The position numbers and the translations under genes are program-made. 64,000 nt of DNA. Source: Candidatus Eutrophobius brisbanensis (GTDB lineage: Bacteria > Pseudomonadota > Gammaproteobacteria > Eutrophobiales > Eutrophobiaceae). Below, in pieces: positions 24,195-47,162 of the stretch. The stretch covers positions 525,691 to 589,690 of the forward strand of contig JAYPQE010000003.1 in assembly GCA_038131795.1 (NCBI GenBank), written 5' to 3'. The notes below the pieces were generated by a model, which was not told the origin of the DNA, ran no database searches, and worked only from the letters and a program-made list of their open reading frames with translations. Position 1 is the stretch's first letter. Every line of letters starts with the position of its first letter.

Positions 24195-26373
<2,179 letters not shown>

Positions 26374-26387
26374 TAACTGCGGTAATT

Positions 26388-26445: not shown

Positions 26446-26467
26446 TTCCTATTAGAAAGTGATTACT

Positions 26468-26493: not shown

Positions 26494-26577
26494 AATAGAT
26501 TAAAGTGCGCCAAGGGCGCTCATTATGAGCGAACTTTAGCCTCAGCGATTAAGATAATGACCAGAAGCTAGTGGTTT

Positions 26578-26841: not shown

Positions 26842-27015
26842 TGCAAACTCCTGAATTAATTAATGAATGAAAGGCGCGCACTATGCTGATTTAGCAGCAA
26901 TTTGTCAATCCTTGCGTCGGATTATGATATCCTCCCAAAGGTGAATATTTCTTATATAAACAACCAGATAAGCATTTTTTATAATGTGATGCTGGAAATA
27001 CAGGTAAAGCGATAA

Positions 27016-28557
27016 ATGGCCAGTATGCTCAAATCTACCCGTCTGGTGGGTGGTATGACGATAATTTCTCGGGTATTTGGCATGATCCGCGACATCATCC
27101 TGGCCCGCCTGTTCGGGGCCGGGCTGGGCTTTGATGTCTTTATCGTGGCGTTTAGGATACCCAATTTTCTACGCCGGTTATTTGCTGAAGGCGGCTTTTC
27201 CCAGGCCTTTGTCCCGGTCCTGTCTGAATATCGTGAAAAACGTGATAAGGAAGAGGTGCGTGCGTTAATCGATCAGACCGGGGCCACACTGGGACTGATT
27301 CTATTAATTATTAGTGCCCTCGGTGTCATTTTGGCACCGCTACTGATTGGCATATTTGCCCCTGGGTTTATAGGTGAGACTGAGAAGTTCGAGCTGGCCT
27401 CAAAGATGTTGCAGGTGACATTTCCTTATATCCTGTTTATCTCCCTGACGGCCTTTGCCGGCGCCATTCTCAATACCTATCATAACTTTGGCGTCCCGGC
27501 ATTTACTCCTGTTTTACTCAACCTGTCACTTATTGGTTGTGCCATCTGGTTGGCCCCCACATTTCCGGAAGGGCAACAGGTAGTCGCTCTGGCTTGGGGG
27601 GTGTTGATCGCCGGCGTTATACAGTTAAGTTTCCAGGTGCCATTTTTACTGAAGATCAAATTGTTACCCATTCCTCGTTTCAACCGTGACAGGGAAGGGG
27701 TAAACAAAATAATGAAGTTGATGTTGCCCACCTTGTTTGCCGTGTCTATTACCCAGATAAATTTATTAATTGATACGTTGATAGCATCGTTTTTACAGAC
27801 TGGCAGTATCTCCTGGCTGTACTACTCTGACCGTATGGTTGAATTACCATTGGGTGTATTTGGTGTGGCCCTGGCAACAGTGATCCTGCCGAACCTCTCC
27901 ACCGAACATGCCAGGGGGAACAATGCTACCTTCAGTGGTATCGTTTCCTGGGCCCTGGGTCTGGTCTTTATGATAGCCATACCCGCTGCAGCAGGCCTTG
28001 CCTTGTTATCAGTACCCATATTGACGACGTTGTTCCAGTATGCCGAATTCACCACCCATGATGTGATCATGTCCAGTAAGAGCCTGATGGCCTATGCAAT
28101 CGGTTTGCCGGGTTTCATCCTGATCAAGGTATTTTCCTCGGCGTTCTTTTCCCGGCAGGATACCAGTACCCCGGTGAAGATCGCGGCCATAGCTATGGTC
28201 GCGAATATTGTGCTTAATCTCCTGTTGGTAGGATATTTTCAGCATGCTGGCCTGGCATTGGCATCATCCTTATCGGCTTACCTGAATTCAGGACTGTTAT
28301 ATATGAAATTAAGACAGTCCGGGATATTTGTGTCGCTGAAACCAGAGATCAAAATGCTACGCATTGCCTTTATTGCCGTAATTCTAATGTCAGTATTTTT
28401 ATTGGTACTGACGCCAGAACAGGATATATGGTTTCAATGGGACGTATATCAACGTGTAATGCAATTGGTCCTCTGGATTGTTGCTGGTATTGTCACCTAT
28501 ACTGCTGGCATTTTTATCCAGGGAGTTCGTTTGCGGGACCTGACCTCACCAAAGTAA
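27016..28557 (+). CDS. murJ: Lipid II flippase MurJ (MviN)
   Basis: 'MASMLKSTRLVGGMTIISRVFGMIRDIILARLFGAG'. 14-TM MOP family. Divergent from rpsT. Confidence 0.9.
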   Translation: MASMLKSTRLVGGMTIISRVFGMIRDIILARLFGAGLGFDVFIVAFRIPNFLRRLFAEGGFSQAFVPVLSEYREKRDKEEVRALIDQTGATLGLILLIISALGVILAPLLIGIFAPGFIGETEKFELASKMLQVTFPYILFISLTAFAGAILNTYHNFGVPAFTPVLLNLSLIGCAIWLAPTFPEGQQVVALAWGVLIAGVIQLSFQVPFLLKIKLLPIPRFNRDREGVNKIMKLMLPTLFAVSITQINLLIDTLIASFLQTGSISWLYYSDRMVELPLGVFGVALATVILPNLSTEHARGNNATFSGIVSWALGLVFMIAIPAAAGLALLSVPILTTLFQYAEFTTHDVIMSSKSLMAYAIGLPGFILIKVFSSAFFSRQDTSTPVKIAAIAMVANIVLNLLLVGYFQHAGLALASSLSAYLNSGLLYMKLRQSGIFVSLKPEIKMLRIAFIAVILMSVFLLVLTPEQDIWFQWDVYQRVMQLVLWIVAGIVTYTAGIFIQGVRLRDLTSPK

Positions 28558-28561
28558 TAAT

Positions 28562-29494
28562 ATGAAAGTAATCCGAGGAATCTCAGCTATAAGAAAGCAT
28601 GCGCCCTGTGTGTTGAGTGTAGGCAATTTTGATGGCCTGCACAGGGGACATCAATCAATCATCAGGCAGTTAACAGATTATGCCAGTCAGCATAATGTGA
28701 CACCTGTGATGATGACGTTTGAACCATACCCTATGGAGTATTTTTCTCCGCAAACAGCACCGGTGCGATTGACAGATTTCAGGCAAAAGCTTGAGCTTTT
28801 AGCAAAGATGAATATCAGTAATGTGATTTGTCTTAGGTTTAATGATGCATTGGCATCTGTGACGGCCAGGTCTTTTGTTGAAGATATTCTGGTGGAGAAA
28901 TTAAATGTTCAGGGCTTGATTGTGGGAGACGATTTCAGATTTGGTAACAAGCGAGAAGGGGATATAGACCTGCTGAGAGAAATGTCAGAGAAGTATAAAT
29001 TTGAACTTATCCCCGTTGAGACATTTCATTATAATGGCATGCGAGTCAGTAGCAGCCTGGTGAGAGGCCATTTGGCCCTGGGAGATTTTAACCTCGTCAG
29101 TGAATTGCTTGGCCGACCTTATACAATTGATGGCACGGTGATTCATGGTGATAAGCTAGGTAGAGAACTGGGATATCCCACCGCAAATATTGCCTGTAGA
29201 AGGGTAAACTACCCGTTATCCGGTGTATTTGTCGTCAGGATCCATGGTCTGAATGATACAATCTACGATGGTGTCGCGAGTATCGGTACCCGGCCTGTAT
29301 TTAACGGTGTAAAAATGCTACTGGAAGTGAATATTTTTGATTTTCAACAGGAAATTTATGGAAAGCGTATCAGTGTGGAGTTCTGTAAAAAACTGCGGGA
29401 TGAACAGCAGTTCCATTCAGTGGAAGCATTGTGTGAGCAAATAACCGCCGATGTAAAAAAGTCAAAAGCGTACTTCAATCAAACTAATCAATAA
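28562..29494 (+). CDS. ribF: Bifunctional riboflavin kinase / FMN adenylyltransferase
   Basis: 'LSVGNFDGLHRGHQ', riboflavin kinase C-terminal domain. Precedes ileS. Confidence 0.9.
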   Translation: MKVIRGISAIRKHAPCVLSVGNFDGLHRGHQSIIRQLTDYASQHNVTPVMMTFEPYPMEYFSPQTAPVRLTDFRQKLELLAKMNISNVICLRFNDALASVTARSFVEDILVEKLNVQGLIVGDDFRFGNKREGDIDLLREMSEKYKFELIPVETFHYNGMRVSSSLVRGHLALGDFNLVSELLGRPYTIDGTVIHGDKLGRELGYPTANIACRRVNYPLSGVFVVRIHGLNDTIYDGVASIGTRPVFNGVKMLLEVNIFDFQQEIYGKRISVEFCKKLRDEQQFHSVEALCEQITADVKKSKAYFNQTNQ

Positions 29495-29512
29495 CAATTT
29501 AATTATTAACTA

Positions 29513-32332
29513 ATGTCAAATTATAAAGATTCATTAAACCTTCCAAAAACGGACTTCCCCATGAAAGGTAATCTTTCCCGCCGGGAACCTGAGACCTTAC
29601 AACGATGGAAGGTGACAAAACTCTATGAAAAGATCCGCGAGGCCAAATCCGGGAAGCCTGCTTATATCCTTCATGATGGACCTCCTTATGCCAATGGGGA
29701 GATCCACATTGGTCACGCAGTAAACAAAATATTAAAAGACATCATCATCAAGGCAAAGGGATTGAGTGGGTATGATGCCCCCTATGTCCCTGGTTGGGAT
29801 TGCCATGGACTGCCTATTGAATTACAGGTGGAAAAAAAGATCGGTAAAGCCGGCCATAAGGTCGATACCCATACCTTTCGAGACCATTGCCGAAAATACG
29901 CTGCTAAACAAATAGACAGTCAACGGGAAGACTTTATTCGTTTAGGTGTGCTGGGTGACTGGGACAAGCCGTATACCACCATGGCGTTTGAGACCGAGGC
30001 CAATATCGTCCGAGCCCTGGGTAAGATGATCCAGGCAGGGCACCTGATTAAAGGGTACAAACCGGTTTATTGGTGTACTGACTGTGGTTCGGCGCTGGCT
30101 GAAGCAGAAGTTGAATATCAGGACAAACAATCCCCTTCGGTGGATGTAAGATTTTCCGTAGTGGACCTGGATGATTTTGCAACAAAATCTGGGATAGAGA
30201 GTGAGATATTAAAAGAAGGTGACATCTCACTGGTGATCTGGACGACAACGCCCTGGACATTACCGGCAAACCAGGCAGTGGCACTAAATCCCGCACTTGA
30301 ATACCAACTGCTAAAAATTGAATTAGATACAGGTGTGAAATTTATTTTACTGGCAACTGATTTAATTGATTCGGCCATGGCCCGCTATCAGATCGATAAT
30401 TTTGAAAGTATTAAGACGATTAAAGGTCAGGATCTTGAGGGGCTGATACTTTCACATCCATTTTATGACCGTGAAGTCCCTGTGGTCCTGGGTGATCATG
30501 TGACCACGGAATCCGGTACCGGTGCCGTGCACACAGCACCCGGTCACGGAATGGACGACTATGTGGTGGGCGTACATTACGGACTGAAAGTTGAAAATCC
30601 TGTCGCGGCCAATGGTTGTTTTGTAGAAGGTACAGAATATTTCGCGGGTGAATATGTCTTTAAGGCCAATGACCATGTAATAGAAGTGTTAACCAATAAT
30701 AATAAACTGCTGGCGCATAAGACCATAGATCACAGTTATCCCCATTGCTGGCGCCATAAAACGCCTATTATCTTTCGCGCGACCCCACAGTGGTTTTTCA
30801 GTATGGATGATAAGGGCCTGCGCGCTAAGGCACTGGATCAGATTAAAAAAGTCGCATGGACCCCGGATTGGGGCCAGCAGCGGATTGAAAAGATGGTGGC
30901 CGATCGTACAGACTGGTGTATCTCACGGCAACGTACCTGGGGTGTCCCTATAGCAGTCTTTATCCATTGTGAAACCGGAGAGCTGCACCCAGATACTGAA
31001 CTACTCATGGAGCAGGCGGCAAAACTGATCGAAAATGAAGGTATTGATGCCTGGCATGAACTGGATATGGAGGCATTACTCGGTGACGATGCCAGTCAAT
31101 ATGAAAAGGTTGAAGATATCCTGGATGTCTGGTTTGATTCAGGGGTCACGCATGCCACAGTGCTGGAAGCAGACGAGAGGCTACAATTCCCCGCCGATCT
31201 CTATCTAGAGGGATCAGATCAACATAGAGGATGGTTTCAATCTTCACTTTTGACTTCTGTTGGGATGAACGGTGTTGCATCGTATAAGAATGTATTAACA
31301 CATGGATTTACCGTGGATGCCCAGGGCAAGAAAATGTCCAAGTCAAAAGGCAACGTGGTTGCACCACAAAAGGTTATGAATACTCTGGGGGCAGATATTC
31401 TTCGGCTCTGGGTGGCCGCAACAGATTATCGTGGCGAAATGAGTGTCTCGGATGAGATTATGAAACGCACGGCCGATGCCTACCGCCGTATCCGAAATAC
31501 CTCCCGGTATTTGCTTGCAAACCTGGACGGGTTTGACCCAAACCAACACCTGGTGTCGGCAGATGAATTGCTCGAGCTGGATGCCTGGGTACTGTTTAAA
31601 ACACGTGAACTTCAGGAAGAAGTAATTGAAGCCTACGAAACCTTTCAGTTTCATCACATCTACCAGAAGCTTCATCACTTTTGTGTAGTGGTGATGGGGA
31701 ATTTTTATCTAGACATTATTAAAGACAGAATTTATACAACGCAAACCAATAGTATAGCAAGACGTTCATCACAAACTGTGCTGTATCATATTGTACATGC
31801 CTTTGTTCGTTGGATTGCGCCTATTCTAAGTTTTACCGCAGATGAGATCTGGCAGTATTTGCCGGACGAGTCTACCGAATCTGTTTTCCTGGATGAATGG
31901 TATCAGGGTATCCCTTTATTAGAGAATGTTGAGGATTCAAAATGGAACACTATCATCCAGGTGCGAGATGAAGTCAGTCGTGTCCTGGAGAAATTGCGTA
32001 AAGATGATTTAATCGGCGCGGGACTGGATGCAGAAGTGACATTATTCTGTGGCGGACAAATGCTGGAACATCTGGCCTCACTTGATGATGAAATACGTTT
32101 TGTGTTGATTACCTCCGCTGCTAATGTAAAGTCAGAACACGAAAGACCCGAGGATGCAGTTGAGTCTGAAATGTCGGGACTCTGGATCAAGGCTATACCT
32201 TCCAGGAAAGACAAATGTGTACGTTGCTGGCACCACCGCGAGGAGGTTGGAAAGAACGATATACACCCTGAATTATGTGGGCGTTGTATAGAGAATGTTG
32301 ACGGTAGTGGTGAAACCAGGAAGTTTGCCTGA
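29513..32332 (+). CDS. ileS: Isoleucine--tRNA ligase
   Basis: HIGH '[14 protein letters not shown]', KMSKS 'KMSKSKGN', C-terminal zinc-finger cysteines. 939 aa. Confidence 0.95.
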
Positions 32333-32350
32333 GGAAAATTTTACCATGTA

Positions 32351-32430
32351 CGTCATTCCGGTTAATCCGTTCACCGTCATTCCCGCGCAGAGCTTGCCCC
32401 TGTGGATTGTAGGCAGAGGCGGGAATCCAG
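32351..32430. repeat. MITE/REP-like element, CGTCATTC family (80 bp)
   Basis: 'CGTCATTCCGG...CGTCATTCCCGCGCAGAG...AGAGGCGGGAATCCAG'. Duplicated CGTCATTC head. ATTCCCGC/GCGGGAAT arms separated by ~40 nt. In the ileS-lspA gap. Confidence 0.55.
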
Positions 32431-32487
32431 TTAAATTAAAAATGTCCGTATTTTGGACATTATAAAGTTTGGAGATATCAATAATCC

Positions 32488-32994
32488 ATGAAATCCAGTG
32501 CGATAAAATGGATCTGGTTGTCGATTGTTGTCATCATCCTTGATCAAATAACAAAATATTATATTAGTCACCAGTTTTCATTATATGAAATGCTTTCGGT
32601 ATTTCCAGGTCTGAATCTCACCTATGTTCATAACACGGGGGCAGCATTCAGTTTCTTAAGTGACGCCGGTGGTTGGCAATGCTGGTTATTTATCTCACTA
32701 AGTTCAATCATCAGTGTCATACTCATCGTCTGGATGAAAAGACACCCTGCCGCGGATATCTGGATGGCCATTGCCCTGGCACTGATCCTCGGTGGCGCAA
32801 TAGGTAATCTAATAGACAGGGTGATGTTTGGCTATGTTATTGATTTTATAGTTTTTTATTATCAGCGCTGGTATTGGCCTGCCTTTAACGTAGCCGATTC
32901 TGCCATTAGTGTCGGTGTGGTCATGATGATTATTGATTCATTCTGGTTTGACCATGCAAAAGTCTCAACCCATTCCGGTGAGATCAAAAAATAG
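32488..32994 (+). CDS. lspA: Lipoprotein signal peptidase II
   Basis: 'NTGAAFSFL', 'FNVADSAISVG' LspA motifs. 168 aa. Confidence 0.9.
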   Translation: MKSSAIKWIWLSIVVIILDQITKYYISHQFSLYEMLSVFPGLNLTYVHNTGAAFSFLSDAGGWQCWLFISLSSIISVILIVWMKRHPAADIWMAIALALILGGAIGNLIDRVMFGYVIDFIVFYYQRWYWPAFNVADSAISVGVVMMIIDSFWFDHAKVSTHSGEIKK

Positions 32995-33065
32995 TATTTC
33001 ATGGATACTGTGAAGTTAAATAACGACCGTGTATCATGAACATCTGGAATTCAAAGGAGTAAACC

Positions 33066-34019
33066 ATGCAGATAACCCTTGCCAACCCCAGGGGATTTTG
33101 TGCCGGTGTAGATCGGGCAATTGAAATAGTAGAGCGGGCACTGGAAATATTTGGTGCGCCTGTGTATGTTCGACATGAAGTTGTGCATAACAAATATGTC
33201 GTGGAAACCCTGAGAAAGATGGGGGCGGTATTTGTCGAAGAGCTTGATGAGGTTCCTGACAATTCCACTGTGATCTTCAGTGCGCATGGCGTATCAATCG
33301 CCGTGAGAGAAGAAGCGACCCGAAGAAAGCTGCGTGTGTTTGATGCCATTTGCCCCCTTGTGACCAAGGTCCATATGGAGGTTAGCCGTTACCAGCAGGA
33401 AGGCAGGGAATGTATTTTAATTGGACATGCCGGCCATCCTGAAGTGGAAGGGACACTGGGGCAGTACCGCAAAAAGAATGGCAAGGGCGGAATGTACCTG
33501 GTGGAATCAGTGGAAGATGTCTGGAAAATGGAGGTACATAATCCCGACTTTCTTGCCTTTGTTACGCAAACGACACTTTCCATGGATGATACGGCAGAAG
33601 TGATCAATGCCTTAACAGAACGCTTTCCCAGTATTCATGGTCCCAAGAAAGAGGACATCTGTTACGCAACACAGAATCGTCAGGATGCCGTTAAAAAACT
33701 TTCTAAAGATTGTGATTTGATCCTGGTTGTGGGTTCACAAAATAGTTCAAATTCAACCAGGTTAATGGAAATATCACAGAAGAAGGGTGTGCCAGCTTAT
33801 CTGATTGATAACGCCTCGGAAATTCAACAGGAATGGCTGGATGGTAAATCCAATATCGGGGTGACCGCTGGCGCTTCGGCCCCGGAGATCCTGGTAGAAG
33901 AAGTCATTGATAAAATACAAAGGCACACTGATGCCAATGTTGTTGATGCACCAGGAATAAAAGAACAGGTGGTTTTTTCTCTTCCACGAGAACTTGCGAA
34001 AGAATCTAGCCTGAATTAA
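33066..34019 (+). CDS. ispH: 4-hydroxy-3-methylbut-2-enyl diphosphate reductase
   Basis: '[26 protein letters not shown]', 'HEVVHN', 'GSQNSSNS' LytB motifs. Confidence 0.95.
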
Positions 34020-35097: not shown

Positions 35098-35173
35098 GCC
35101 GGAATAGCTCAGTTGGTAGAGCGGCGCATTCGTAATGCGTAGGTCGGAGGTTCGAATCCTCTTTCCGGCACCA
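35098..35173 (+). tRNA. tRNA-Thr (anticodon CGT). Integration target of the island.
   Basis: 'GCCGGAATAGCTCAGTTGGTAGAGCGGCGCATTCGTAATGCGTAGGTCGGAGGTTCGAATCCTCTTTCCGGCACCA'. Anticodon loop TTCGTAA. Its 3' 20 nt are repeated at 46995..47014. Confidence 0.9.
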
Positions 35174-35276: not shown

Positions 35277-35336
35277 GGGGGCACATGGGGGCATATTTGG
35301 GGGCACATTTCAATTAAAGTCCGAGGATGTGCCCCC
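35277..35336. promoter_or_regulatory. Putative integrase arm-type binding sites: three direct 'GGGGGCA(C/T)AT' repeats plus an inverted copy overlapping the int start
   Basis: 'GGGGGCACATGGGGGCATATTTGGGGGCACATTTC...ATGTGCCCCCAA'. Related 'TGGGGGCATAT(A)TGGGGGCACATTTC' lies at 45291..45316, and 'TGGGGGCATATT' at 46929..46940, each ~55-65 bp left of an att copy. Confidence 0.4.
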
Positions 35337-35337
35337 A

Positions 35338-36549
35338 ATGAAGCTGACTAACACCGCAATCAGCAACCTGAAAAAGCTCTCAAAAACCACCCGCCTGTTT
35401 GATGGTGGAGGTTTATATCTTGAAGCTACGCCTCAGGGTGGTAAGTACTGGCGTTTGAAATACCGGTTCCTTGGTAAAGAGAAACGTTTGGCACTGGGAG
35501 TTTATCCTGATGTCACCCTGAAAATGGCCAGGGATCGTCGTGAGGAGGCCAGACGGTTACTGGCAGATGGTATAGACCCTGGAGAACATAAAAAATCCTT
35601 GCTGGACTCGAAAAAAGAAAACCTCAATAACACCTTCCAATCCGTTGCGGATGAGTGGCATCAGAAACAATCTAAAGACTGGACCGAACAACATTCACTG
35701 AGCGTAAAACGCAGACTGGAATTGAATGTGTTTCCCTGGCTAGGAGACAGACCGATAGCAGACATAAACCCGAAAGAGATTTTGTCGGTAATATGCCGAA
35801 TCGAGGATCGTGGTGCCCTGGAAACAGCTCACCGAGTATATTGGTCTTGTGGTCAGGTTTTCCGTTATGGCGTGGCGACCGGAAGGGTTATGACCGACCC
35901 TTGCCGTGATCTCAGAGGGTTCTTACCCCCGACCAGGGTTAACCATAGAGCAGCAATCACTGAGCCTGTCAAAGTAGGGGAGTTGCTACGTGCAATTGAC
36001 GGATATGATGGAACGATGATTGTAAAGAACGCGATGAAACTCGCTCCGTTAGTATTTGTACGGCCAGGGGAACTCCGGCAGGCAGAATGGAAGGATATTG
36101 ACCTTGATAAGGCAGAATGGCGCTACACCATTTCAAAGACCAATACCCCCCATATTGTACCTCTCTCAAATCAGGCACTTAAAATACTCGAAGAAATTCA
36201 ACCTCTCACGGGCAAGGGCCAATATGTGTTTCCAAGTGCAAGGTCTGCAAAGCGGCCAATGAGTGATAATGCAATCCTAGCTGCATTTAGGCGCATGGGA
36301 TATGACAAGGAAGAAATGAGTGTTCATGGCTTTCGTGCGATGGCCAGAACAATTCTTGATGAGGTGTTAGGATTTCGTCCTGATTTTATAGAACATCAGT
36401 TGGCTCATGCTGTACGCGATCCGAATGGTCGGGCATATAACAGAACATCACATCTAAAAGAACGGACAATAATGATGCAGAAGTGGGCAGATTATCTCGA
36501 CACACTAAAAGCGGGCGCAGAGGTTATTTCTATCAAAAGAAATTCTTAA
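35338..36549 (+). CDS. int: P4-type tyrosine integrase (DUF4102 arm-binding N-terminus)
   Basis: 'MKLTNTAISNLKK..RLFDGGGLYLEATPQGGKYWRLKYRFLGKEKRLALGVYPDVTLKMARDRREEARRLLADGIDP' is the P4-family N-terminus. The catalytic region has 'HGFRAMART' and 'LAH'. The ORF track begins at the GTG at 35329; the ATG at 35338 is preferred. Confidence 0.9.
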   Translation: MKLTNTAISNLKKLSKTTRLFDGGGLYLEATPQGGKYWRLKYRFLGKEKRLALGVYPDVTLKMARDRREEARRLLADGIDPGEHKKSLLDSKKENLNNTFQSVADEWHQKQSKDWTEQHSLSVKRRLELNVFPWLGDRPIADINPKEILSVICRIEDRGALETAHRVYWSCGQVFRYGVATGRVMTDPCRDLRGFLPPTRVNHRAAITEPVKVGELLRAIDGYDGTMIVKNAMKLAPLVFVRPGELRQAEWKDIDLDKAEWRYTISKTNTPHIVPLSNQALKILEEIQPLTGKGQYVFPSARSAKRPMSDNAILAAFRRMGYDKEEMSVHGFRAMARTILDEVLGFRPDFIEHQLAHAVRDPNGRAYNRTSHLKERTIMMQKWADYLDTLKAGAEVISIKRNS

Positions 36550-38363: not shown

Positions 38364-38668
38364 GAGGAGGGTTGACCAGATTGTTGCTGAGTCGAGAGCA
38401 GCCCGGCACCTACAAGACCGAGAACTAGTTAAGGTAACAGTCCAGCGTCAACAAGCTCTCGAACCTTCGCAAAACCGCCCTCACTTAAAGCTTGTCGAGT
38501 AGTCATGATGGTCTCCTTGGATAAGGTCAAAATTGGGTAAAGGCGGTTCAAGAAAAGGCTCTGGCAGGAAATCTAAACCTTATAGATTTCTTGAGATTGG
38601 TGGATTCTGTGAGAATCTTAATCATCAACTTTTGAATGAGATTAAACGCTCGAGGGTCGCAGCAAGCC
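38364..38668. repeat. Direct repeat copy A (X+Y module, ~300 bp) upstream of the nuclease-helicase gene
   Basis: '..GTTGCTGAGTCGAGAGCAGCCC..CCAGCGTCAACAAGCTCTCGAACCTTCGCAAAACCGCCCTCACTTAAAGCTTGTCGAGTAG' (X) plus 'GATCTCCTTGGATAAG.TCAAAATTGGGTAAAGG.GGTTCAAGAAAAGGCTCTGGCAGGAAATCTAAACC..' (Y). X recurs at 38958..39096. X-partial+Y recurs at 42809..43037. Confidence 0.8.
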
Positions 38669-38754
38669 TGCCCCCAGTAATGACACCAGATTTTGAGTCA
38701 AAAAAAACAGCTCAAAAAGTAGTAAAATTTACTGTAAAGGATATTAGTTTTTAA
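38533..38754 (+). CDS. Truncated/diverged duplicate of the basic small protein (shares its first 47 aa with 42900..43388)
   Basis: 'MGKGGSRKGSGRKSKPYRFLEIGGFCENLNHQLLNEIKRSRVAASL' is identical to the N-terminus of the 162-aa ORF, then diverges where the DNA repeat ends. TTG start in the ORF track. Confidence 0.3.
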   Translation: MGKGGSRKGSGRKSKPYRFLEIGGFCENLNHQLLNEIKRSRVAASLPPVMTPDFESKKTAQKVVKFTVKDISF

Positions 38755-38890: not shown

Positions 38891-39094
38891 ATGTACATAG
38901 ACTTTAATAAAACTGACCATCCTGAACTATACGCTGCTAAAATTAGGCGATTCAGGAGGGAGGTTGCCCAGATTGTTGCTGAGTCGAGAGCAGCCCAGCC
39001 CCTACAAGACCGAGAACTAGTGAAGGTAACAGTCCAGCGTCAACAAGCTCTCGAACCTTCGCAAAACCGCCCTCACTTAAAGCTTGTCGAGTAG
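38891..39094 (+). CDS. Small hypothetical protein (67 aa). Its 3' half lies in repeat X.
   Basis: 'MYIDFNKTDHPELYAAKIRRFRREVAQIVAESRAAQPLQDRELVKVTVQRQQALEPSQNRPHLKLVE'. Start-less copies of the C-terminal 40 aa occur at 38377..38502 and 42809..42870. Confidence 0.3.
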   Translation: MYIDFNKTDHPELYAAKIRRFRREVAQIVAESRAAQPLQDRELVKVTVQRQQALEPSQNRPHLKLVE

Positions 39095-39191
39095 TTTTGA
39101 CAATCTCGCTTCTTTGGCAATGGGAGTCTCACCAGGGTGATGAAATAAACTTGTGTTTATCCAAAATAAAAAAAACTAGCAAAATATTGAA

Positions 39192-42100
39192 ATGGCAACC
39201 TTAGAACAACTCATCTCCACCTTTGAAGGTCATGAAACTGCTAGAGGGAAGATGTTTGAAAGAGCCTGTAAATGGCTACTGGAGAACGACCCTACCTATA
39301 GTAATCTTAAAAAAGTTTGGCTATGGGATGACTGGCCAGGGCGTTGGGATATAGATAGAGGAATTGACCTTATCGCTGAGGATGAAGACGGAAAAATTTG
39401 GGGAATACAGGCCAAGCTTTATCGTCCTGAAAATAGTATTAATAGAAAAGATATAGACACATTCCTTACCGAATCAAGCAACAAATATATTCATCAACGA
39501 TTATTGATTGGCACCACTGACAATGTCTCTCGTGGCGGAATAGGTGCGATGAAGCGATGTGCTGAGCTTATTCCAGTAAATCAATTATTGCGCTCTGAGC
39601 TGTTAGCTAAACAAATAGAGTGGCCTGAGTCACTTGATAAGCTCTCTACCGGAGGCTTAAAAGCTAAAAATAACCCGCGCCCAGATCAAGAGAGAGCTAT
39701 TGAAGATGTTGTTACTAACTTTAAAGATCAATCCCGAGGCCAACTCATCATGGCTTGCGGAACTGGAAAGACTCTTACAGCGCTATGGATAGCGGAAAAG
39801 CTAAAGAGTGAGACAACCCTTGTATTATTACCATCATTATTGCTTCTATCAAAGACACTATCGGAATGGGTGACACAGTCTTCAGAACCATTTTCTTTTT
39901 TACCAGTCTGCTCTGATGACTCTGTCTCTAAATCCGATGATTCAATAAACTATTCCACAACAGAACTTGGCTTTCCTTCGACTACTGATGCAGCAGAAAT
40001 CGCTAAATTTCTTGATAAATCTGGCAGAAAGGTAATTTTTTCAACATATCAGTCATCTCAGCAAATAGCTGATGCTTTTGAAAAGAAGAAAATTAAGCCC
40101 TTTGAGTTAGTCATTGCTGATGAAGCTCATCGTTGTGCAGGTAAAGCTGGAGCAGATTACACAACCGTATTAGATAACAAAGCTATACCGGCTAAGAAAC
40201 GTCTATTTATGACTGCTACTCCAAAGATATTCCAGACCTTTGTTAAGAAAGAAGCAGAAGATAGAGGTGTTGAAGTCTATTCAATGGATGATGAGGCTTT
40301 ATTTGGCAAGGTATTTCATAAGCTTTCCTTTGGAGAAGCTATAGAGCAAAAACTACTTACGGATTATCAAGTATCTATCGTAGGTATTGATGAGCCAATA
40401 TTAGCGGAAATGATAAGTAAAAGAGAACTTGTTAAGACCGATACTGGTATTGAAACAGATGCACAGACTATTGCGGCTCATATAGGGTTGGCGAAAGCCA
40501 TAAAAACCTATGACCTTAAACGAATAATCACGTTTCACTCTAAAGTTAAATCAGCTGATGAGTTCCAAGGGGACTTCAAAAAAGTTTTAGATTGGATGCC
40601 TAATGAGCATAAACCTGATGGAAAGTTCATTACTAACTTCGTTTCAGGAGCAATGACAACAGCTACAAGGAATACCAGACTAGGAGAACTGGGAGAGATT
40701 GCTGAAGGCAAAAGAGGAATCCTTTCAAATGCCAGATGCTTATCTGAAGGTGTAGATGTCCCAACTTTAGATGGGATTGCTTTCATAGACCCAAGAAACT
40801 CTGAGATCGATATCGTTCAAGCAGTAGGTCGCGCGATTAGGCTAGCTAAAGGAAAAGACAAAGGCACAATTGTTATTCCCATTTTTATTTCTGATTTTGA
40901 TGACCCTGAAGAAGTATTAAATGACTCGTCATATAAGAAGATTTGGGCGGTTATCAACGCGCTACGGGCACATGATGAAAATCTTGGTATCGAGCTTGAT
41001 AATTTAAGAAAAATGATGGGCAAAAGAGGCAGCGTAGGTCGCTCTGAAAAGATTCATTTTGATTTGCCTGTAACTATTGATGCAGAGTTTGCAGAATGTT
41101 TTAGTATTAAACTACTTGAGACTACTACTGCATCTTGGGAGTTTTGGTTTGGATTATTAGAAGAATACAAAGATGCACATGGTCATGCTAATCCGTCACA
41201 AAGTTATATAACAAATACTAAATATCAATTAGGTACTTGGTGCGACAAAAACCGACAAAATTATAAAAAAAATAAGTTAACCTCTGAGAAAATCAATCGA
41301 CTTGAGGCTTTAGGATTTATCTGGGACCTTCTAGCTCAGCAATGGGAGGAAGGATTCAAGGAGCTATCTGCATACAAAGATGCACATGGTCATGCTAACC
41401 CAGCAACCAATCATAAAACAGATACTGATTATCAATTAGGTACTTGGTGCAACACAAACCGAACAAATTATAAAAAAAATAAGTTAACCTCTGAGAAAAT
41501 CAATCGACTTGAGGCTTTGGGATTTATCTGGGACCCTCTAGCTCAGCAATGGGAGGAAGGATTCAAGGAGCTATCTGCATACAAAGATGCACATGGTCAT
41601 GCTAATCCGTCAAGCAGATATATAACAAATACTAAATATCAATTAGGTACTTGGTGCGACAAAAACCGAACAAATTATAAAAAAAATAAGTTAACCTCTG
41701 AGAAAATCAATCGACTTGAGGCTTTAGGATTTATCTGGAACCCTCAAGCTCAGCAATGGGAGCAAGGATTCAAGGAGCTATCTGCATACAAAGATGCACA
41801 TGGTCATGCTAATCCGTCAAAAAGTTATATAACAAATACTAAATATCAATTAGGTGCTTGGTGCGACGCAAACCGACAAAATTATAAAAAAAATAAGTTA
41901 ACCTCTGAGAAAATCAATCGACTTGAGGCTTTAGGATTTATCTGGGACCCTCTAGCTCAGCAATGGGAGGAAGGATTCAAGGAGCTATCTGCATACAAAG
42001 ATGCACATGGTCATGCTAATCCGCCACAAAGTTATATAACAAATACTAAATATCAATTAGGTACTTGGTGCGACACAAACCGAACAAATTATAAAAAAAA

Positions 42101-42785
42101 TAAGTTAACCTCTGAGAAAATCAATCGACTTGAGGCTTTGGGATTTATCTGGGACCCTCTAGCTCAGCAATGGGAGGAAGGATTCAAGGAGCTATCTGCA
42201 TACAAAGATGCACATGGTCATGCTAATCCGTCAAAAAGTTATATAACAAATACTAAATATCAATTAGGTGCTTGGTGCGACACAAACCGACAAAATTATA
42301 AAAAAAATAAGTTAACCTCTGAGAAAATCAATCGACTTGAGGCTTTAGGATTTATCTGGGACCTTCTAGCTCAGCAATGGGAGGAAGGATTCAAGGAGCT
42401 ATCTGCATACAAAGATGCACATGGTCATGCTAACCCAGCAACCAATCATAAAACAGATACTGATTATCAATTAGGTGCTTGGTGCAACACAAACCGACAA
42501 AATTATAAAAAAAATAAGTTAACCTCTGAGAAAATCAATCGACTTGAGGCTTTAGGATTTATCTGGGACCCTCTAGCTCAGCAATGGGAGGAAGGATTCA
42601 AGGAGCTATCTGCATACAAAGATACACATGGTCATGCTAATCCGCCACAAAGTTATATAACAAATACTAAATATCAATTAGGTACTTGGTGCAACACAAA
42701 CCGACGAAATTATAAAAAAAATAAGTTAACCTCTGAGAAAATCAATCGACTTGAGGCTTTAGGATTTAAGTGGTCTATAAAATAA
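39192..42785 (+). CDS. Mrr-like PD-(D/E)xK nuclease fused to an SF2 DEAH-box helicase and 8 tandem helicase-associated (HA) domains
   Basis: The N-terminus has the Mrr_cat motif 'DIDRGIDLIAEDEDGKIWGIQAKLY'. Walker A 'MACGTGKTLTALW'. DEAH 'VIADEAHRCAG'. Helicase-C motif VI 'QAVGRAIRLAKGK'. The C-terminus (from ~aa 648) has 8 x 69-aa repeats 'WEEGFKELSAYKDAHGHANP..YQLGTWCD.NR.NYKKNKLTSEKINRLEALGFIWDPLAQQ', which is the HA-domain consensus (LG.W...R......L......L..LGF.W). Confidence 0.85.
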   Translation: MATLEQLISTFEGHETARGKMFERACKWLLENDPTYSNLKKVWLWDDWPGRWDIDRGIDLIAEDEDGKIWGIQAKLYRPENSINRKDIDTFLTESSNKYIHQRLLIGTTDNVSRGGIGAMKRCAELIPVNQLLRSELLAKQIEWPESLDKLSTGGLKAKNNPRPDQERAIEDVVTNFKDQSRGQLIMACGTGKTLTALWIAEKLKSETTLVLLPSLLLLSKTLSEWVTQSSEPFSFLPVCSDDSVSKSDDSINYSTTELGFPSTTDAAEIAKFLDKSGRKVIFSTYQSSQQIADAFEKKKIKPFELVIADEAHRCAGKAGADYTTVLDNKAIPAKKRLFMTATPKIFQTFVKKEAEDRGVEVYSMDDEALFGKVFHKLSFGEAIEQKLLTDYQVSIVGIDEPILAEMISKRELVKTDTGIETDAQTIAAHIGLAKAIKTYDLKRIITFHSKVKSADEFQGDFKKVLDWMPNEHKPDGKFITNFVSGAMTTATRNTRLGELGEIAEGKRGILSNARCLSEGVDVPTLDGIAFIDPRNSEIDIVQAVGRAIRLAKGKDKGTIVIPIFISDFDDPEEVLNDSSYKKIWAVINALRAHDENLGIELDNLRKMMGKRGSVGRSEKIHFDLPVTIDAEFAECFSIKLLETTTASWEFWFGLLEEYKDAHGHANPSQSYITNTKYQLGTWCDKNRQNYKKNKLTSEKINRLEALGFIWDLLAQQWEEGFKELSAYKDAHGHANPATNHKTDTDYQLGTWCNTNRTNYKKNKLTSEKINRLEALGFIWDPLAQQWEEGFKELSAYKDAHGHANPSSRYITNTKYQLGTWCDKNRTNYKKNKLTSEKINRLEALGFIWNPQAQQWEQGFKELSAYKDAHGHANPSKSYITNTKYQLGAWCDANRQNYKKNKLTSEKINRLEALGFIWDPLAQQWEEGFKELSAYKDAHGHANPPQSYITNTKYQLGTWCDTNRTNYKKNKLTSEKINRLEALGFIWDPLAQQWEEGFKELSAYKDAHGHANPSKSYITNTKYQLGAWCDTNRQNYKKNKLTSEKINRLEALGFIWDLLAQQWEEGFKELSAYKDAHGHANPATNHKTDTDYQLGAWCNTNRQNYKKNKLTSEKINRLEALGFIWDPLAQQWEEGFKELSAYKDTHGHANPPQSYITNTKYQLGTWCNTNRRNYKKNKLTSEKINRLEALGFKWSIK
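41136..42785 (+). repeat. Tandem array of 8 x 207-bp near-identical coding repeats (HA domains)
   Basis: The unit starts 'TGGGAG(GAAGGATTCAAGGAGCTATCTGCATACAAAGATGCACATGGTCATGCTAA)'. It recurs at 41136, 41343, 41550, 41757, 41964, 42171, 42378 and 42585. Differences are confined to a few codon positions. Confidence 0.9.
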
Positions 42786-42808
42786 ATGGGAACGGCGCAG
42801 GAAGAACT

Positions 42809-43037
42809 CCAGCGTCAACAAGCTCTCGAACTCTCGCAAAACCGCCCTCACTTAAAGCTTGTCGAGTAGTTCTGATGATCTCCTTGGATAAGTTCAAAAT
42901 TGGGTAAAGGTGGTTCAAGAAAAGGCTCTGGCAGGAAATCTAAACCTTATAGATTTCTTGAGGTTGGTGGATTCTGTGAGAATCTTAATCATCAACTTTT
43001 GAATGAGATTAAACGCTCGAGGGTCGCGGCAAGCCTG
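42809..43037. repeat. Direct repeat copy C (X-partial + Y) downstream of the nuclease-helicase gene
   Basis: 'CCAGCGTCAACAAGCTCTCGAACTCTCGCAAAACCGCCCTCACTTAAAGCTTGTCGAGTAGTTCTGATGATCTCCTTGGATAAGTTCAAAATTGGGTAAAGGTGGTTCAAG...GCAAGCCTG' is >90% identical to 38440..38668. Confidence 0.8.
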
Positions 43038-43388
43038 TCAGCTTATGACGAAGCCGTCTATAAAGCCAAATCTAAAGGCGTCCGAGCTTATGTGAATCCA
43101 AAGACCGACGAACAAGAAGACCATCATGAAAATATTCAAGAAGCATTATTGAAAGACAAAAAGAAGTTTAAGAAATCAGTAGCACTACTTAATAAGCTTG
43201 TAGCGGGGCAGTTATCTGAAGAAATCTATCTCCAGCAGAAACCGTCCATCCCAAGGTATCAACAATTAAAGAATCCAAGACCTCCAAGACAGGAGGTGCT
43301 GAAACAAGCATCTAAACACTTTTGCTTAAAGATAAGCACCATTGATAAGTACTGGAAGGATTTCAGGAAAACTCTAAAAGATAAATAA
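42900..43388 (+). CDS. Hypothetical highly basic protein (162 aa)
   Basis: 'MGKGGSRKGSGRKSKPYRFLEVGGFCENLNHQLLNEIKRSRVAASLSAYDEAVYKAKSKG...'. Lys/Arg-rich. TTG start in the ORF track. Full-length version of 38533..38754. Confidence 0.4.
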   Translation: MGKGGSRKGSGRKSKPYRFLEVGGFCENLNHQLLNEIKRSRVAASLSAYDEAVYKAKSKGVRAYVNPKTDEQEDHHENIQEALLKDKKKFKKSVALLNKLVAGQLSEEIYLQQKPSIPRYQQLKNPRPPRQEVLKQASKHFCLKISTIDKYWKDFRKTLKDK

Positions 43389-43489: not shown

Positions 43490-43711
43490 ATGGAGCATGC
43501 CGCAGAAATTCGACTCATTAGACTGCCCGAAGTCAAATCACGCACGGGGTTATCTCGTTCAACTATTTATTTATGGATTAAAGAAGGTAAATTTCCGGCT
43601 CCTATATCTCTTGGTATGAGGGCTGTAGGATGGCTCGAATTCGATATTCAGCAATGGCTGGATGACAGGATCAAAATAAGCCGCCCGGACCACATTGATG
43701 CGAAAGCATAA
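43490..43711 (+). CDS. alpA: AlpA-family phage/island transcriptional regulator (excisionase-like HTH)
   Basis: 'IRLIRLPEVKSRTGLSRSTIYLWIKEGKFPAPISLGMRAVGWLEFDIQQWL' is the AlpA/MerR-type HTH consensus. Typical partner of P4-type integrases. Confidence 0.85.
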   Translation: MEHAAEIRLIRLPEVKSRTGLSRSTIYLWIKEGKFPAPISLGMRAVGWLEFDIQQWLDDRIKISRPDHIDAKA

Positions 43712-44132
43712 TCCTCGGCTTGTAAAGATTCACAGAAATTATACGGTTGAGGAAATAGCTATCCTGTTCGGCATTCATAAGAACACAGTTCACCAATGGA
43801 TTAAGCGTGGTTTGCCTGTTATGGATAACAAAAGACCAAAACTAATACATGGCGAGGAGTTATTAGGTTTTATCAAGGAGTGTCGCACCAAAAATAAGAA
43901 ATCATGTAAGCCTGGTGAGATTTACTGTGTGAAGTGTCGTGAACCTCGGTCACCATTAAATTTGGAAGTTTGTTACCGCCCGATTACCGAAAAACTGGGG
44001 GATTTAGTTGGTATATGCCCCTGTTGTGAGATAGCTATCTATCGAAGAGCAAGTATGGCTAAATTGCAGTGTATTCGAGGTGAACTATCGATAATGATGC
44101 CGAAAGGTTTGGAACACTTAGTAGAGACATAA
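43695..44132 (+). CDS. HTH domain protein with C-terminal C4 zinc ribbon (hypothetical regulator)
   Basis: 'YTVEEIAILFGIHKNTVHQWIKRGLPV' HTH. 'CVKCREP....CPCCE' zinc ribbon. Overlaps alpA by 17 nt. Confidence 0.5.
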   Translation: MMRKHNPRLVKIHRNYTVEEIAILFGIHKNTVHQWIKRGLPVMDNKRPKLIHGEELLGFIKECRTKNKKSCKPGEIYCVKCREPRSPLNLEVCYRPITEKLGDLVGICPCCEIAIYRRASMAKLQCIRGELSIMMPKGLEHLVET

Positions 44133-44174: not shown

Positions 44175-45260
44175 ATGTCAAAATACAATGCTGAAAATGA
44201 ACGTATCAAGCGCCAGTATTTTACTTTTTTGAAAGAGGCAAAGCGTCAAGACGAATCAACTATTGATGCGGTTGCCAAGGCCATACGGCGGTTTGAAGAT
44301 TACTGTAGTCAGCGTAGTTTCAAGAAATTCAATTTCAACCAGGCGGTTGCTTTTAAGAAGCATTTAGCTAACCAGAGGAATATACAGACAGGCAGGAATT
44401 TAAGTAAGGCAACGATAAATTCCACGTTGGGTCACTTAAAACGGTTATTTCAATGGTTGTCCGATAAACCTGGATATAAATCCCGGATTAGCTACTCCGA
44501 TGCTGATTATTTCAACCTTTCCGAGAAAGATACCCGTGTAGCCAAGGCCGTCCACCCTAGACAGGTACCGACACTTGACCAGATACGGCATGTCCTTGGT
44601 TGTATGCCGGTAGATTCGGATATTTCCTCGCGCAATCGGGCGATTATCGCTTTTACGATCCTGACGGGTGCCAGGGACAACGCCATTGCCTCATTGAAAT
44701 TGAAACACATAGATTTGATTGGAAGAAGTGTTTACCAGGATGCCCGAGAAGTCAGGACGAAATTCAGTAAATCCTTCACAACTTATTTTTTCCCGGTAGG
44801 TGAGGATATACGGGAAATTGTTGAACAATGGATACAATACCTTAGAGAAGGATTGTTATGGGGCAATGAGGACCCCTTATTTCCTGCTACAGCGGTCAGG
44901 GTAGGGGAGTCCAGGCAATTTGAAGCTAATGGGCTGAAAAAGAGCCATTGGAGTAACGCCAGTCCAATAAGGTCCATTTTTAAGGATGCGTTTACACAGG
45001 CTGGATTAGACTATTTTAATCCCCATACATTCCGGAATACCCTGGTTGGGTTGGGTGAGAAAATTTGCAATACTCCCGAAGACTTCAAGGCATGGAGTCA
45101 AAATCTGGGACATGAGGAAGTTCTAACCACTTTTAATAGCTATGGTGAGGTATCGAACCAGCGCCAATCTGAAATCATCCGATCCCTGGGTGCCGAAGAA
45201 GGTGATGAATCGGAAGAAATAAAATTACTCAGAAAATTGGTAAAAAAACATAATCTTTAA
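44175..45260 (+). CDS. Tyrosine-type site-specific recombinase (second integrase of the island)
   Basis: N-terminal SAM-like 'FNQAVAFKKHLANQR'. Catalytic 'R' in 'GARDNAI'. 'HTFRNT' (HxxR) and 'LGHEEVLTTFNSYGEV' (catalytic Tyr). Followed 30 bp downstream by the GGGGGCA repeats and the internal att copy. Confidence 0.85.
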   Translation: MSKYNAENERIKRQYFTFLKEAKRQDESTIDAVAKAIRRFEDYCSQRSFKKFNFNQAVAFKKHLANQRNIQTGRNLSKATINSTLGHLKRLFQWLSDKPGYKSRISYSDADYFNLSEKDTRVAKAVHPRQVPTLDQIRHVLGCMPVDSDISSRNRAIIAFTILTGARDNAIASLKLKHIDLIGRSVYQDAREVRTKFSKSFTTYFFPVGEDIREIVEQWIQYLREGLLWGNEDPLFPATAVRVGESRQFEANGLKKSHWSNASPIRSIFKDAFTQAGLDYFNPHTFRNTLVGLGEKICNTPEDFKAWSQNLGHEEVLTTFNSYGEVSNQRQSEIIRSLGAEEGDESEEIKLLRKLVKKHNL

Positions 45261-45506
45261 ACCAATAATACAGGGTATGACTTCGGTACTTGGGGGCATA
45301 TATGGGGGCACATTTCTGGAGCATGATGCATCAATTATATTGAAAACAGATAGATACGGTTGCTTATAGAATCCTCTTTCCGCCCATTTTCATTTCCAGC
45401 AACATAAGGAATACAATAATCACTTGAACCCAAATCCTAACTTTGAAAATGGTACCGTTACTGGGAGTAGGTCACAAGTTATCTAGTATCACAAAGGATC
45501 ACTTAG

Positions 45507-46421
45507 TTGAATATTTTTGATTCATATGTAATTGTTGATTGGAGTTCTTCAAATAAACCTAATACGGGTAAAGATAGTATATGGTATTGCCAAATTATTT
45601 GGAAAGATGGTGAAATAGCTATAAAAAATCTTAAGAATCCATCGACAAGGCATCAAGCTTTTAATGAAATACGCGAAATATTAATCCAATCTAAAGATAA
45701 AAATCATAGAACATTAGTTGGGTTCGATTTTTCTTATGGTTATCCATCAGGTTTCTCAAAATATCTAGGGTTAGAACAAGAAAATAAATGGTTATCTATA
45801 TGGAGACATATTGATTCTCTTATAGTAGATAATATAGATAACGAAAATAATAGGTTCGAGGTCGCTAATAAAATCAATGATCTATTAAGCGGGGCAAATT
45901 ACCCCTTTTGGGGCTGTCCAAGTAGTGAAACACGTGAAAACCTTACCTCAACAAAAGCAGAAAAACCTTTGCATTTTGAAATCGATGATTTCAGAATAAC
46001 TGAAAAAAAAATACAGCGAGCGCAATCGGTTTGGAAACTATTCTATTCGGGTAGTGTTGGCGGCCAAGTTTTAACTGGTATTCCAAAGCTTTGGAACCTA
46101 TATAAAGATAAAGAATTATTTAAATATTCAATAGTTTGGCCTTTCGAAACAGGCCTTCATCATATAAATCAAGATAAACTTAAAAATAAATTAATTGTTC
46201 ATGCTGAAATTTATCCTTCGATTATAGATATTAATGCTGACAATAATGAGGCGAAGGATAAAGCTCAGGTTAGGGAGCTTGCCAGCCATTTTGCAAAGTT
46301 AGATAAAGATAATAAACTCGGAGAATTGTTTGCAGGTCCTATGAATCTGACTTTTGATGAAAGAAAAATAATTGAAGATGAAGAAGGGTGGATTCTAGGG
46401 GTTGTTGATAAAAATCACTAA
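45507..46421 (+). CDS. Hypothetical protein, possibly RNase-H-like fold (DUF429-like N-terminus). Very AT-rich.
   Basis: 'MNIFDSYVIVDWSSSNKPNTGKDSIWYCQI' resembles the (I/V)GxDxS... start of RNase-H-like DUF429/YqgF proteins. Weak motif-level call. Lies between the internal att and attR. Confidence 0.3.
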   Translation: MNIFDSYVIVDWSSSNKPNTGKDSIWYCQIIWKDGEIAIKNLKNPSTRHQAFNEIREILIQSKDKNHRTLVGFDFSYGYPSGFSKYLGLEQENKWLSIWRHIDSLIVDNIDNENNRFEVANKINDLLSGANYPFWGCPSSETRENLTSTKAEKPLHFEIDDFRITEKKIQRAQSVWKLFYSGSVGGQVLTGIPKLWNLYKDKELFKYSIVWPFETGLHHINQDKLKNKLIVHAEIYPSIIDINADNNEAKDKAQVRELASHFAKLDKDNKLGELFAGPMNLTFDERKIIEDEEGWILGVVDKNH

Positions 46422-46894: not shown

Positions 46895-47162
46895 ATTTGC
46901 AATAAATATACATAGTGAGAATTGCCGATGGGGGCATATTGCGCATTATATCTTTAATAAACTTAATAATAACAGATAGATACGGTTACTTATAGAATCC
47001 TCTTTCCGGCACCATTTTAACGAGGGTCCATACCGGGCACATGGGTAACAGATTATTCCGAGAACATTGATAACACTTTTTTGTATAAATCAAATGGACG
47101 CTGGATCTCGACGAAATGCCTGTAAATCAACATCACCAGGTAGCGGTGAATGTATTCGCTTT

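Follow-up and report, generated by a model that had tools for sequence, protein, structure and literature searches.

The closest described relatives of the protein considered here are the Type ISP enzymes LlaGI and LlaBIII, single polypeptides in which an N-terminal Mrr-type nuclease and a superfamily 2 (SF2) motor are followed by a coupler, a methyltransferase (MTase), and a target-recognition domain (TRD). A second point of reference is the helicase-associated (HA) domain, which is found in bacterial helicases, PLD nucleases, Tn7 target selectors, giant-virus helicases, and eukaryotes, and of which the literature says only that it 'may bind DNA'. Tandem HA domains are carried by the Streptomyces telomere helicase TtrA and by Tn7-like TniQ target selectors, where the HA part has been proposed to recognize DNA or the target, with the authors adding that what HA domains recognize needs more study (10.1101/2024.11.13.623437, 10.1101/2025.07.27.667033). 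The title of Mills et al. 2013, as cited in PMC12191111, reports DNA binding by a single HA domain. In the literature we found neither specificity positions nor a recognition code described for HA arrays. Here we examine a gene for a 1197-residue nuclease-helicase in Candidatus Eutrophobius brisbanensis, located in a 64,000-nucleotide stretch of contig JAYPQE010000003.1 (positions 525,691 to 589,690, forward strand; the whole stretch is referred to as the window). The gene belongs to a large, annotated, uncharacterized family and stands out for the homogeneity of the eight HA units in which it ends. We place a probability of roughly 60% on the reading that these units form the exchangeable specificity arm of a nuclease-translocase, in which a loop and the second helix (helix B) of each unit contact a ligand, likely DNA, and direct the attack.

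The N-terminal part of the protein was compared, as sequence, with the solved Type ISP structures. Residues 14–609 match LlaBIII (PDB 4xqk, E 9e-92) and LlaGI (5ffj, E 7e-74). The nuclease motif, D55-x-G-I-D59-L-I-A-E ... I-Q73-A-K75, aligns residue for residue with DTGVDLVAE...IQAK of LlaBIII, so that DxG[IV]DL[IV]AE...IQAK is the pattern common to both. The motor, covered by ResIII/DEAD (residues 161–345) and Helicase_C (residues 439–551), carries Walker A GTGKT at 190–194, DEAH at 310–313, TATP at 341–344, and QAVGRAIR at 543–550; GTGKT, DEAH, TATPK, and QAVGR are all kept in the LlaBIII alignment. Across 93 family members, D59, Q73, K75, G190–T194, D310–H313, and others were invariant. For a full-length AlphaFold2 (AF2) model, with a predicted local distance difference test score (pLDDT) of 87.8 and a predicted template modeling score (pTM) of 0.64, the best structural match found by Foldseek was again 4xqk (E 9e-41).

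The alignment to LlaBIII ends at query residue ~610, equivalent to LlaBIII residue 659 of 1578, a point that, by the published domain order of the enzyme, we take to precede its MTase and TRD. The PADLOC profile REase_MTase_IIG was covered only over its positions 3–646 of 1646, and no MTase family was found in the protein with Pfam or NCBIfam, nor in the neighboring open reading frames (ORFs) of the mobile island that carries the gene. Because the alignment stops at residue 659, the IIG profile is matched in part, and no MTase family was found, the protein corresponds to the nuclease and motor portion of a Type ISP enzyme, with HA domains in the place of the MTase and TRD. Its C-terminal 551 residues consist of the eight HA domains, whereas Type ISP enzymes have the coupler-MTase-TRD half there, and nothing in it gives host protection by methylation. 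Judged from its sequence, the enzyme body is homologous to the Type ISP nuclease and motor, with all catalytic motifs intact and the MTase and TRD gone. Membership of Type ISP itself was rejected, as MTase and TRD are absent. PADLOC returned no defense model spanning the whole protein, and a scan for sigma-70 promoters and terminators gave no result on either side of the gene.

A protein database search returned 4365 proteins of the same architecture with E<1e-10, from Gammaproteobacteria, Actinomycetota, Chlamydia suis, and other taxa. Relatives are named 'Helicase associated domain protein' or 'DEAD/DEAH box helicase', and have the domain order of the window protein (Mrr_cat_2, ResIII/Helicase_C, HA). 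The best relatives are 49–64% identical to it: neither a second strain nor a close orthologue was found in the protein database, where the next best match was 49% identical overall, and among species-representative genomes the best match was 64% identical, at the N-terminus. An exact 35-mer from the invariant part of the unit had 0 matches in metagenome contigs, and no further contigs with the exact protein are on record. Among the top 120 relatives, arrays range from 3 to 20 units of 66–73 residues, and the window array is the most homogeneous of the 120, with a mean unit identity of 0.85 against a median of 0.49. TtrA-like helicases and HA-bearing TniQ proteins have in common with the window protein an SF2 helicase or target selector with tandem HA domains. 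However, the Streptomyces/Kitasatospora plasmid matches (PLSDB H51–H67) align from query residue ~160 only, with no Mrr nuclease aligned, and the TtrA-like Streptomyces genes stand ~1 kb away from the termini of their linear plasmid records, whereas the window gene lies in a gammaproteobacterial chromosomal tRNA island. Given the nuclease and the different genomic context, we rejected TtrA orthology. Pseudomonas megaplasmid matches (PLSDB H43–H49), with helicase plus HA, were also aligned from query residue ~160 only.

Tandem Repeats Finder (TRF) reported a single array (41165–42768, period 207, 7.7 copies, 93% matches, score 2791) wholly within the ORF, and the motif YKD[AT]HGHANP occurs eight times at a spacing of exactly 69 residues. 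The Pfam HA family (PF03457) matched in 8 stretches (E 6e-167; 542.6 bits, with the cutoff at 28.4); single units scored 79–81 bits, and a Pfam scan of one unit returned HA only. The eight near-identical 207-bp tandem repeats in a coding sequence (CDS) described in the initial annotation, which was made from the letters alone, are thus borne out, with the qualification that its unit register lies a few bases off; where a unit starts is a matter of choice. The reading frame is intact across the eight units, and every unit has its own combination of variants. Pairwise DNA identity is 91–99% among units 2–7, with 4/6 (98.6%) and 2/7 (98.1%) as the closest pairs, and 80–91% for pairs that include the edge units 1 or 8. 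At the array edges, unit 1 is divergent over its first 12 codons and unit 8 over its last 6. The recent expansion or concerted evolution proposed for the array is supported by its 93% identity at the DNA level; in the closest relative (L002) the array was not detected as a DNA tandem repeat, and in another (L035) it was detected with 73–76% matches. In the latter array (P0020, L035:9991–11339), a two-unit period of 402 bp, with 76% matches, was stronger than the one of 201 bp, with 73%, which hints at duplication in two-unit blocks.

Differences between units were located by comparing columns in units 2–7, and the clustering test was made on the same units. Of 24 variable nucleotide columns, 19 fall within unit nucleotides 61–129 (p<1e-5; 0 of 100,000 random placements), a patch flanked by invariant runs of 49 and 54 nucleotides. 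At the codon level, the variable positions are 23–27, 29, and 31 in a loop, 36, 39, 40, and 43 in helix B, and 66–68 in the linker between units. Codons 23, 24, 40, and 43 each have 3–4 residues among eight otherwise near-identical units. Positions 36, 39, 40, and 43 are spaced i, i+3, i+4, i+7 and occur in alternation with L34, W37, V38, and Y45, all conserved, a pattern that places the four on the exposed side of helix B; an invariant polar pair, Q/N41-R42, adjoins them. All peptides listed in the initial annotation were recovered (PSQSYITNT, PATNHKTDT, PSSRYITNT, PSKSYITNT, PPQSYITNT, CDKNRQN and others, and WDL/WDP/WNP). Its statement that variation is confined to a few codon positions stands as regards the clustering; it had overlooked T/A at position 36 (LG[TA]W), E5Q in unit 4, A16T in unit 8, the synonymous changes at unit nucleotides 63, 66, and 183, and the combinations CDKNRTN, CDTNRQN, and CNTNRQN.

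Rates of non-synonymous (pN) and synonymous (pS) difference were then compared by position. Six test codons (24, 25, 36, 39, 40, and 43) were defined from other proteins, which avoids circularity. At these codons pN was 0.355 against a pS of ~0.05, and pN was 0.009 at twelve exposed control codons (on helices A and C and at positions 44–49). The variation is also mosaic. A 31-nucleotide cassette with 10 linked nucleotide differences, two of them synonymous (nucleotides 63 and 66), was found in units 2 and 7 alone, and the flanks of the cassette in these two units differ (nucleotides 106, 127/128, and 183). The four-gamete test was failed by 37 of 105 informative site pairs. Taken with the patch shared by units 2 and 7 between differing flanks, these failures show exchange of sequence between units, in line with the shuffling suggested earlier from the repeated PATNHKTDTD peptide. 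Overall, the variation in the array is clustered, mostly non-synonymous, and mosaic. Homogenization of the scaffold leaves differences that pick out a single loop and a single helix face.

In both AF2 models, a unit consists of helix A (from position 67 of the preceding unit through 17), a 16-residue loop (18–33), helix B (34–46), and helix C (52–60). The array has a pLDDT of 85–90 in the full-length model, and a three-unit model has a pLDDT of 96 and a pTM of 0.74. The predicted linker between units is ~6 residues. This short linker, together with the model confidence, suggests that the units are set in a defined arm, unlike beads on a string; the helical C-terminal arm is itself a high-confidence prediction. 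The sole solved relative is the single HA domain BVU_0683(627-691) (PDB 2kta), which a profile search matched over one whole unit (E 2e-7) and which has the same signature, W...LGxWxxxQR...L..G..W; with its three predicted helices and this match, the unit fits the description of HA as a small three-helix domain. Unlike the window array, 2kta is an isolated single domain solved by nuclear magnetic resonance (NMR), and it holds no information on arrays, inter-unit geometry, or specificity positions. A Foldseek search of the PDB with the three-unit model gave no match at E<1, and 2kta was not retrieved either. Similar predicted arrays were seen in giant-virus SF2 helicases and in one siphovirus protein.

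The same positions vary in other members of the family. In 24 independent, fairly homogeneous arrays, within-array variability peaks at positions 40, 36, 43, 24, 39, and 25 (0.70–0.85), which adjoin the near-invariant L34, G35, W37, Q41, and R42. The profile of the 24 arrays correlates with the variable positions of the window array (Spearman 0.53, p 3e-6), and the variable positions are therefore recurrent, not random. Across 1128 units, the residues found there are for the most part small or polar (S, T, N, Q, A, G, R, K). We also compared units of orthologous arrays. The six positions differ most between the units of such arrays (0.86–0.92), and between orthologous units they change at 0.20–0.41, against up to 0.55 at other exposed positions. 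This suggests that the six positions are under unit-specific constraint, although positions besides the six also show an excess of within-array over between-orthologue difference.

Whole arrays change beside conserved motors. Among 255 close pairs, with the first 620 residues 80–98% identical, unit number differs in 198. Examples are 7 vs 6 units in relatives with 98% N-terminal identity, and a clean 6-unit indel between P0004 and P0081 (12 vs 6 units), whose remaining units are 69–90% identical and whose N-terminal identity is 94%. The copy-number change anticipated in the initial annotation thus holds at the level of the family; of the two routes that it named, units of 207 bp would follow homologous recombination and not classical strand slippage. 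Sliding identity profiles were drawn for ten pairs. In seven of them (P0059/P0081, P0086/P0103, P0087/P0096, P0031/P0038, P0050/P0109, P0077/P0081, and P0030/P0073) identity breaks sharply at about residue 650, from 92–100% to 35–55%, and a milder drop to ~70–90% was observed in P0067/P0072 and P0029/P0047. The breakpoint lies just past the helical linker that joins motor and array. As far as these comparisons of sequence go, the array evolves by gain and loss of units and by gene conversion or exchange between them, and is a fast-diverging module on a conserved motor. Since such changes stay in frame, they would alter length or specificity and not switch the gene on or off.

The array is best read as an exchangeable specificity module because its variable positions recur in relatives and because array identity and unit number shift beside N-termini that are 90–99% identical. 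In this gene the scaffold is homogenized to ~93% DNA identity, with differences retained or selected in the loop (23–31) and at positions 36, 39, 40, and 43. Under this reading, the surface made by the loop and helix B, beside the invariant W37, Q/N41, and R42, would contact a ligand, most likely DNA, with each unit making its own contacts. The array would then guide the nuclease-motor to its loading site or its target, which is the role of the MTase-TRD in Type ISP enzymes, and ATP-driven translocation and cleavage would follow. The role of the system is likely a conflict with foreign DNA, such as a phage, a plasmid, or a rival element; the gene is cargo of a tRNA-Thr island and has no methyltransferase next to it. 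The label of putative defense gene is given to it because of its likeness to Type ISP enzymes and its mobile-island context.

Several points weigh against this reading. Synonymous changes account for 3 of the 24 variable sites, where 20% of sites are synonymous, which is not significant alone (binomial p 0.25), and whole-unit pN/pS is 1.3–3.3, only modestly above 1. The exposed face of an amphipathic helix is expected to vary more anyway. The orthologous-array test covered 11 pairs from 3 clades, which are non-independent, and positions 25, 36, and 43 ranked 24th, 10th, and 13th in it. Residue quartets at the variable helix positions were almost all unique (914 different in 1128 units), so a small discrete residue code is ruled out. 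DNA binding by HA comes from one NMR study of a single domain, and we found no binding, cleavage, or defense experiment on any member of the architecture in the literature. Finally, in Antrihabitans sp. YC2-6 (L004) a gene for a 697-aa N6-adenine methyltransferase (L004:5818–7911) lies directly upstream of the homologue (L004:7968–11558), so in some lineages the HA array may act alongside an MTase-TRD and not instead of one. The two genes might together make up a split Type ISP-like system, or the methyltransferase might simply belong to a neighboring one; no adjacent N6-methyltransferase gene was seen in the contexts of five other relatives or in the window.

A more far-reaching proposal, which we put forward tentatively and think doubtful as it stands, is that HA arrays are a new class of modular nucleic-acid readers. 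The helix B face (36, 39, 40, and 43, anchored by W37, Q41, and R42) and the loop would each time read a short stretch of DNA, and the string of units would set a long target. In C2H2 zinc finger, TALE, PUF, and PPR readers, too, a small helical unit is repeated in tandem, with a conserved scaffold and variation at fixed positions of one helix, and the zinc-finger positions -1, 2, 3, and 6 have the same spacing as 36, 39, 40, and 43. Unlike those readers, the array gave no fold match (Foldseek against the PDB, E<1) and has no small discrete residue code, so the likeness is a functional analogy alone. Homology to TALE, PUF, or zinc-finger proteins was rejected, there being no similarity of sequence or fold.

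The array could instead be a non-specific DNA tether or processivity aid, with the differences between units left by neutral drift after a burst of duplication. The conservation of the buried L34, W37, V38, and Y45 next to variable residues on the exposed face of helix B is what any amphipathic helix shows, and the synonymous count and the diversity of quartets given above fit a tether as well; each unit carries only a slight net positive charge. Drift is disfavored by the exposed positions of helices A and C, which are invariant here (pN 0.009) while the six positions reach 0.355 with pS at ~0.05. Nor does it sit well with the multi-allelic state of codons 23, 24, 40, and 43, with the ranking of the same positions at the top of within-array variability in 24 other proteins, with the observation that the six positions are not the fastest-changing between orthologous units, or with the swapping of whole arrays between proteins whose motors are 92–99% identical. 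We therefore consider the tether unlikely.

Equally improbable, in our assessment, is that the array is a protein-sensing surface that binds a phage, plasmid, or partner protein and tracks it in an arms race, comparable to the sensors of immune ATPases (TPR, ankyrin, or LRR), with the nuclease-motor as the effector. All-helical arrays with a hypervariable surface typically bind proteins, Foldseek returned no solved repeat fold that binds DNA and resembles the array, and module swapping with diversifying positions is accommodated by a sensor just as well as by a DNA-contacting arm. What speaks for DNA is the company and position of the domain. HA is reported as DNA-binding for its sole solved example, going by the cited title. 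It is fused to modules that act on DNA (SF2 helicases, PLD nucleases, and the TniQ of Tn7-like transposons), and the array stands at the exact place of the Type ISP DNA-recognition module. Its variable helix also holds the invariant Q41-R42 pair, and a Q-R pair in a variable helix is typical of nucleic-acid contacts.

A third alternative is compatible with an exchangeable specificity arm and differs from it in rate alone: the array might be a high-frequency, reversible contingency locus, a variable number tandem repeat that tunes the length or specificity of the arm. Units of 207 bp that are 91–99% identical lend themselves well to unequal homologous recombination, and in the family unit number differs between close relatives (7 vs 6 and 12 vs 6). 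Moreover, each unit holds an A8 homopolymer, in the codons Y-K-K-N; a slip of +1 or -1 there leads to a stop within 1–2 codons and would cut the arm back to the preceding units. The array holds 8 of the 21 A8+/T8+ runs of the window, and slippage at these tracts is a possible second route to variation in arm length. On the other side, no second strain or near-identical orthologue was found in the collections searched, and the family changes on an evolutionary, not a population, time scale. The unique residue combination of each unit points to no recent scrambling by frequent unequal exchange, and classical contingency loci have 1–10-bp repeats that turn expression on and off, whereas the window array stays in frame. 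We consider a high rate of change unlikely for this locus. That the length or order of the array is an assembly artifact is very improbable: near-identical 207-bp repeats are hard for short-read assemblers, but the frame is intact over eight units with distinct edges, unique variant combinations would anchor reads, the source contig is 2.52 Mb, and relatives have 3–20 units of the same design.

Table 1. Features of the nuclease-helicase gene, its HA array, and the surrounding island (positions in the window)
Feature	Position	Strand	Evidence or remark
Nuclease-helicase CDS	39192..42785	+	1197 aa; Mrr-like nuclease, SF2 ATPase motor, 8 HA domains; ORF list, translation, Pfam
Mrr_cat_2 PD-(D/E)xK-type nuclease domain (aa 32-146)	39285..39629	+	Pfam PF13156, E 1.6e-28
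SF2 helicase-like ATPase motor (aa 161-551)	39672..40844	+	Pfam ResIII, DEAD, Helicase_C
Helical linker (aa 552-646)	40845..41129	+	LlaBIII match ends inside; DSSP helices 579-645
Array of eight 207-bp / 69-aa HA units	41130..42785	+	TRF, unit table, eight PF03457 stretches
HA units 1-8	41130-41336, 41337-41543, 41544-41750, 41751-41957, 41958-42164, 42165-42371, 42372-42578, 42579-42785	+	Unit 8 includes the stop codon
Hypervariable patch, unit 1	41190..41258	+	Unit nt 61-129, codons 21-43
Hypervariable patch, units 2-8	41397-41465, 41604-41672, 41811-41879, 42018-42086, 42225-42293, 42432-42500, 42639-42707	+	
Divergent 'ATNHKTDTD' cassette, unit 2	41399..41429	+	Unit nt 63-93; identical copy in unit 7, 42434-42464
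A8 homopolymers, one per unit	41265-41272, then 8 nt each from 41472, 41679, 41886, 42093, 42300, 42507, 42714	+	Codons Y-K-K-N
tRNA-Thr (CGU)	35098..35173	+	ARAGORN; left attachment site at its 3' end, 35154-35173
Island tyrosine integrase	35329..36549	+	Pfam Arm-DNA-bind_3, Phage_int_M, Phage_integrase; NCBIfam PRK09692 E 5e-71
~305-bp repeated element, full copy	38366..38670	+	blastn
~305-bp element, partial copies bracketing the nuclease-helicase gene	38959-39111 and 42808-43037		
HTH_17 / excisionase-like small DNA-binding protein	43695..44132	+	Pfam HTH_17 E 1e-6; NCBIfam 'excise' domain, weak
Second tyrosine recombinase, XerC/D-like	44175..45260	+	Pfam Phage_integrase and SAM-like N-terminal domain; NCBIfam
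Degenerate inner attachment-site copy	45369-45382		Within 45-nt repeat 45338-45382 / 46964-47008
Right attachment site, exact 20-bp copy of tRNA-Thr 3' end	46995..47014	+	0 matches in shuffles

The features of the region are collected in Table 1. The nuclease-helicase gene is cargo of a ~11.8-kb composite integrative island at tRNA-Thr. The attachment sites suggest that two elements were integrated in tandem, one of ~10.2 kb and a 1.6-kb remnant with an ORF at 45507..46421. The small ORFs of the island had no family match in PADLOC, PHROGs, or Pfam. Short motifs of the form GGGGGCA[CT]AT were observed near both island ends (35277–35308, 45300–45316, and 46930–46940) and may be arm-type binding sites of the integrase. 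Copies of the ~305-bp element were aligned with blastn, at 96% over 230 bp (38441–38670 = 42808–43037), 96% over 138 bp, and 92% over 79 bp (39033–39111 = 42808–42885). Because deletion of 39112–42885 would rebuild one intact element, the 3.7-kb gene looks like a cassette that was inserted into, or recombined between, copies of it. A 162-aa ORF (42900..43388) starts inside the downstream copy. Relatives, too, are often cargo of mobile elements, and among those examined three lie in integrase islands (L001, L033, and L035) and one between the tra genes of an integrative and conjugative element (L034). Elsewhere in the window, GC content is 0.44–0.475 over 22000–34000 vs 0.37–0.41 in the flanks, and the left edge of this segment coincides with a tRNA-Pro (22022–22098, minus strand).

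For the family, a conserved nuclease-motor with an exchangeable array amounts to a methyltransferase-less cousin of the Type ISP enzymes carried on mobile elements. For the HA domain, which is widespread, the array yields a short list of candidate specificity residues. If HA arrays do read DNA in a modular way, the array would be a candidate programmable DNA-binding scaffold. In nature, Type ISP-like nuclease-motors, TtrA helicases, TniQ selectors, and giant-virus helicases would then be reprogrammed when units are swapped, added, or edited, and the window array would be the clearest natural pointer to the positions that set their specificity.

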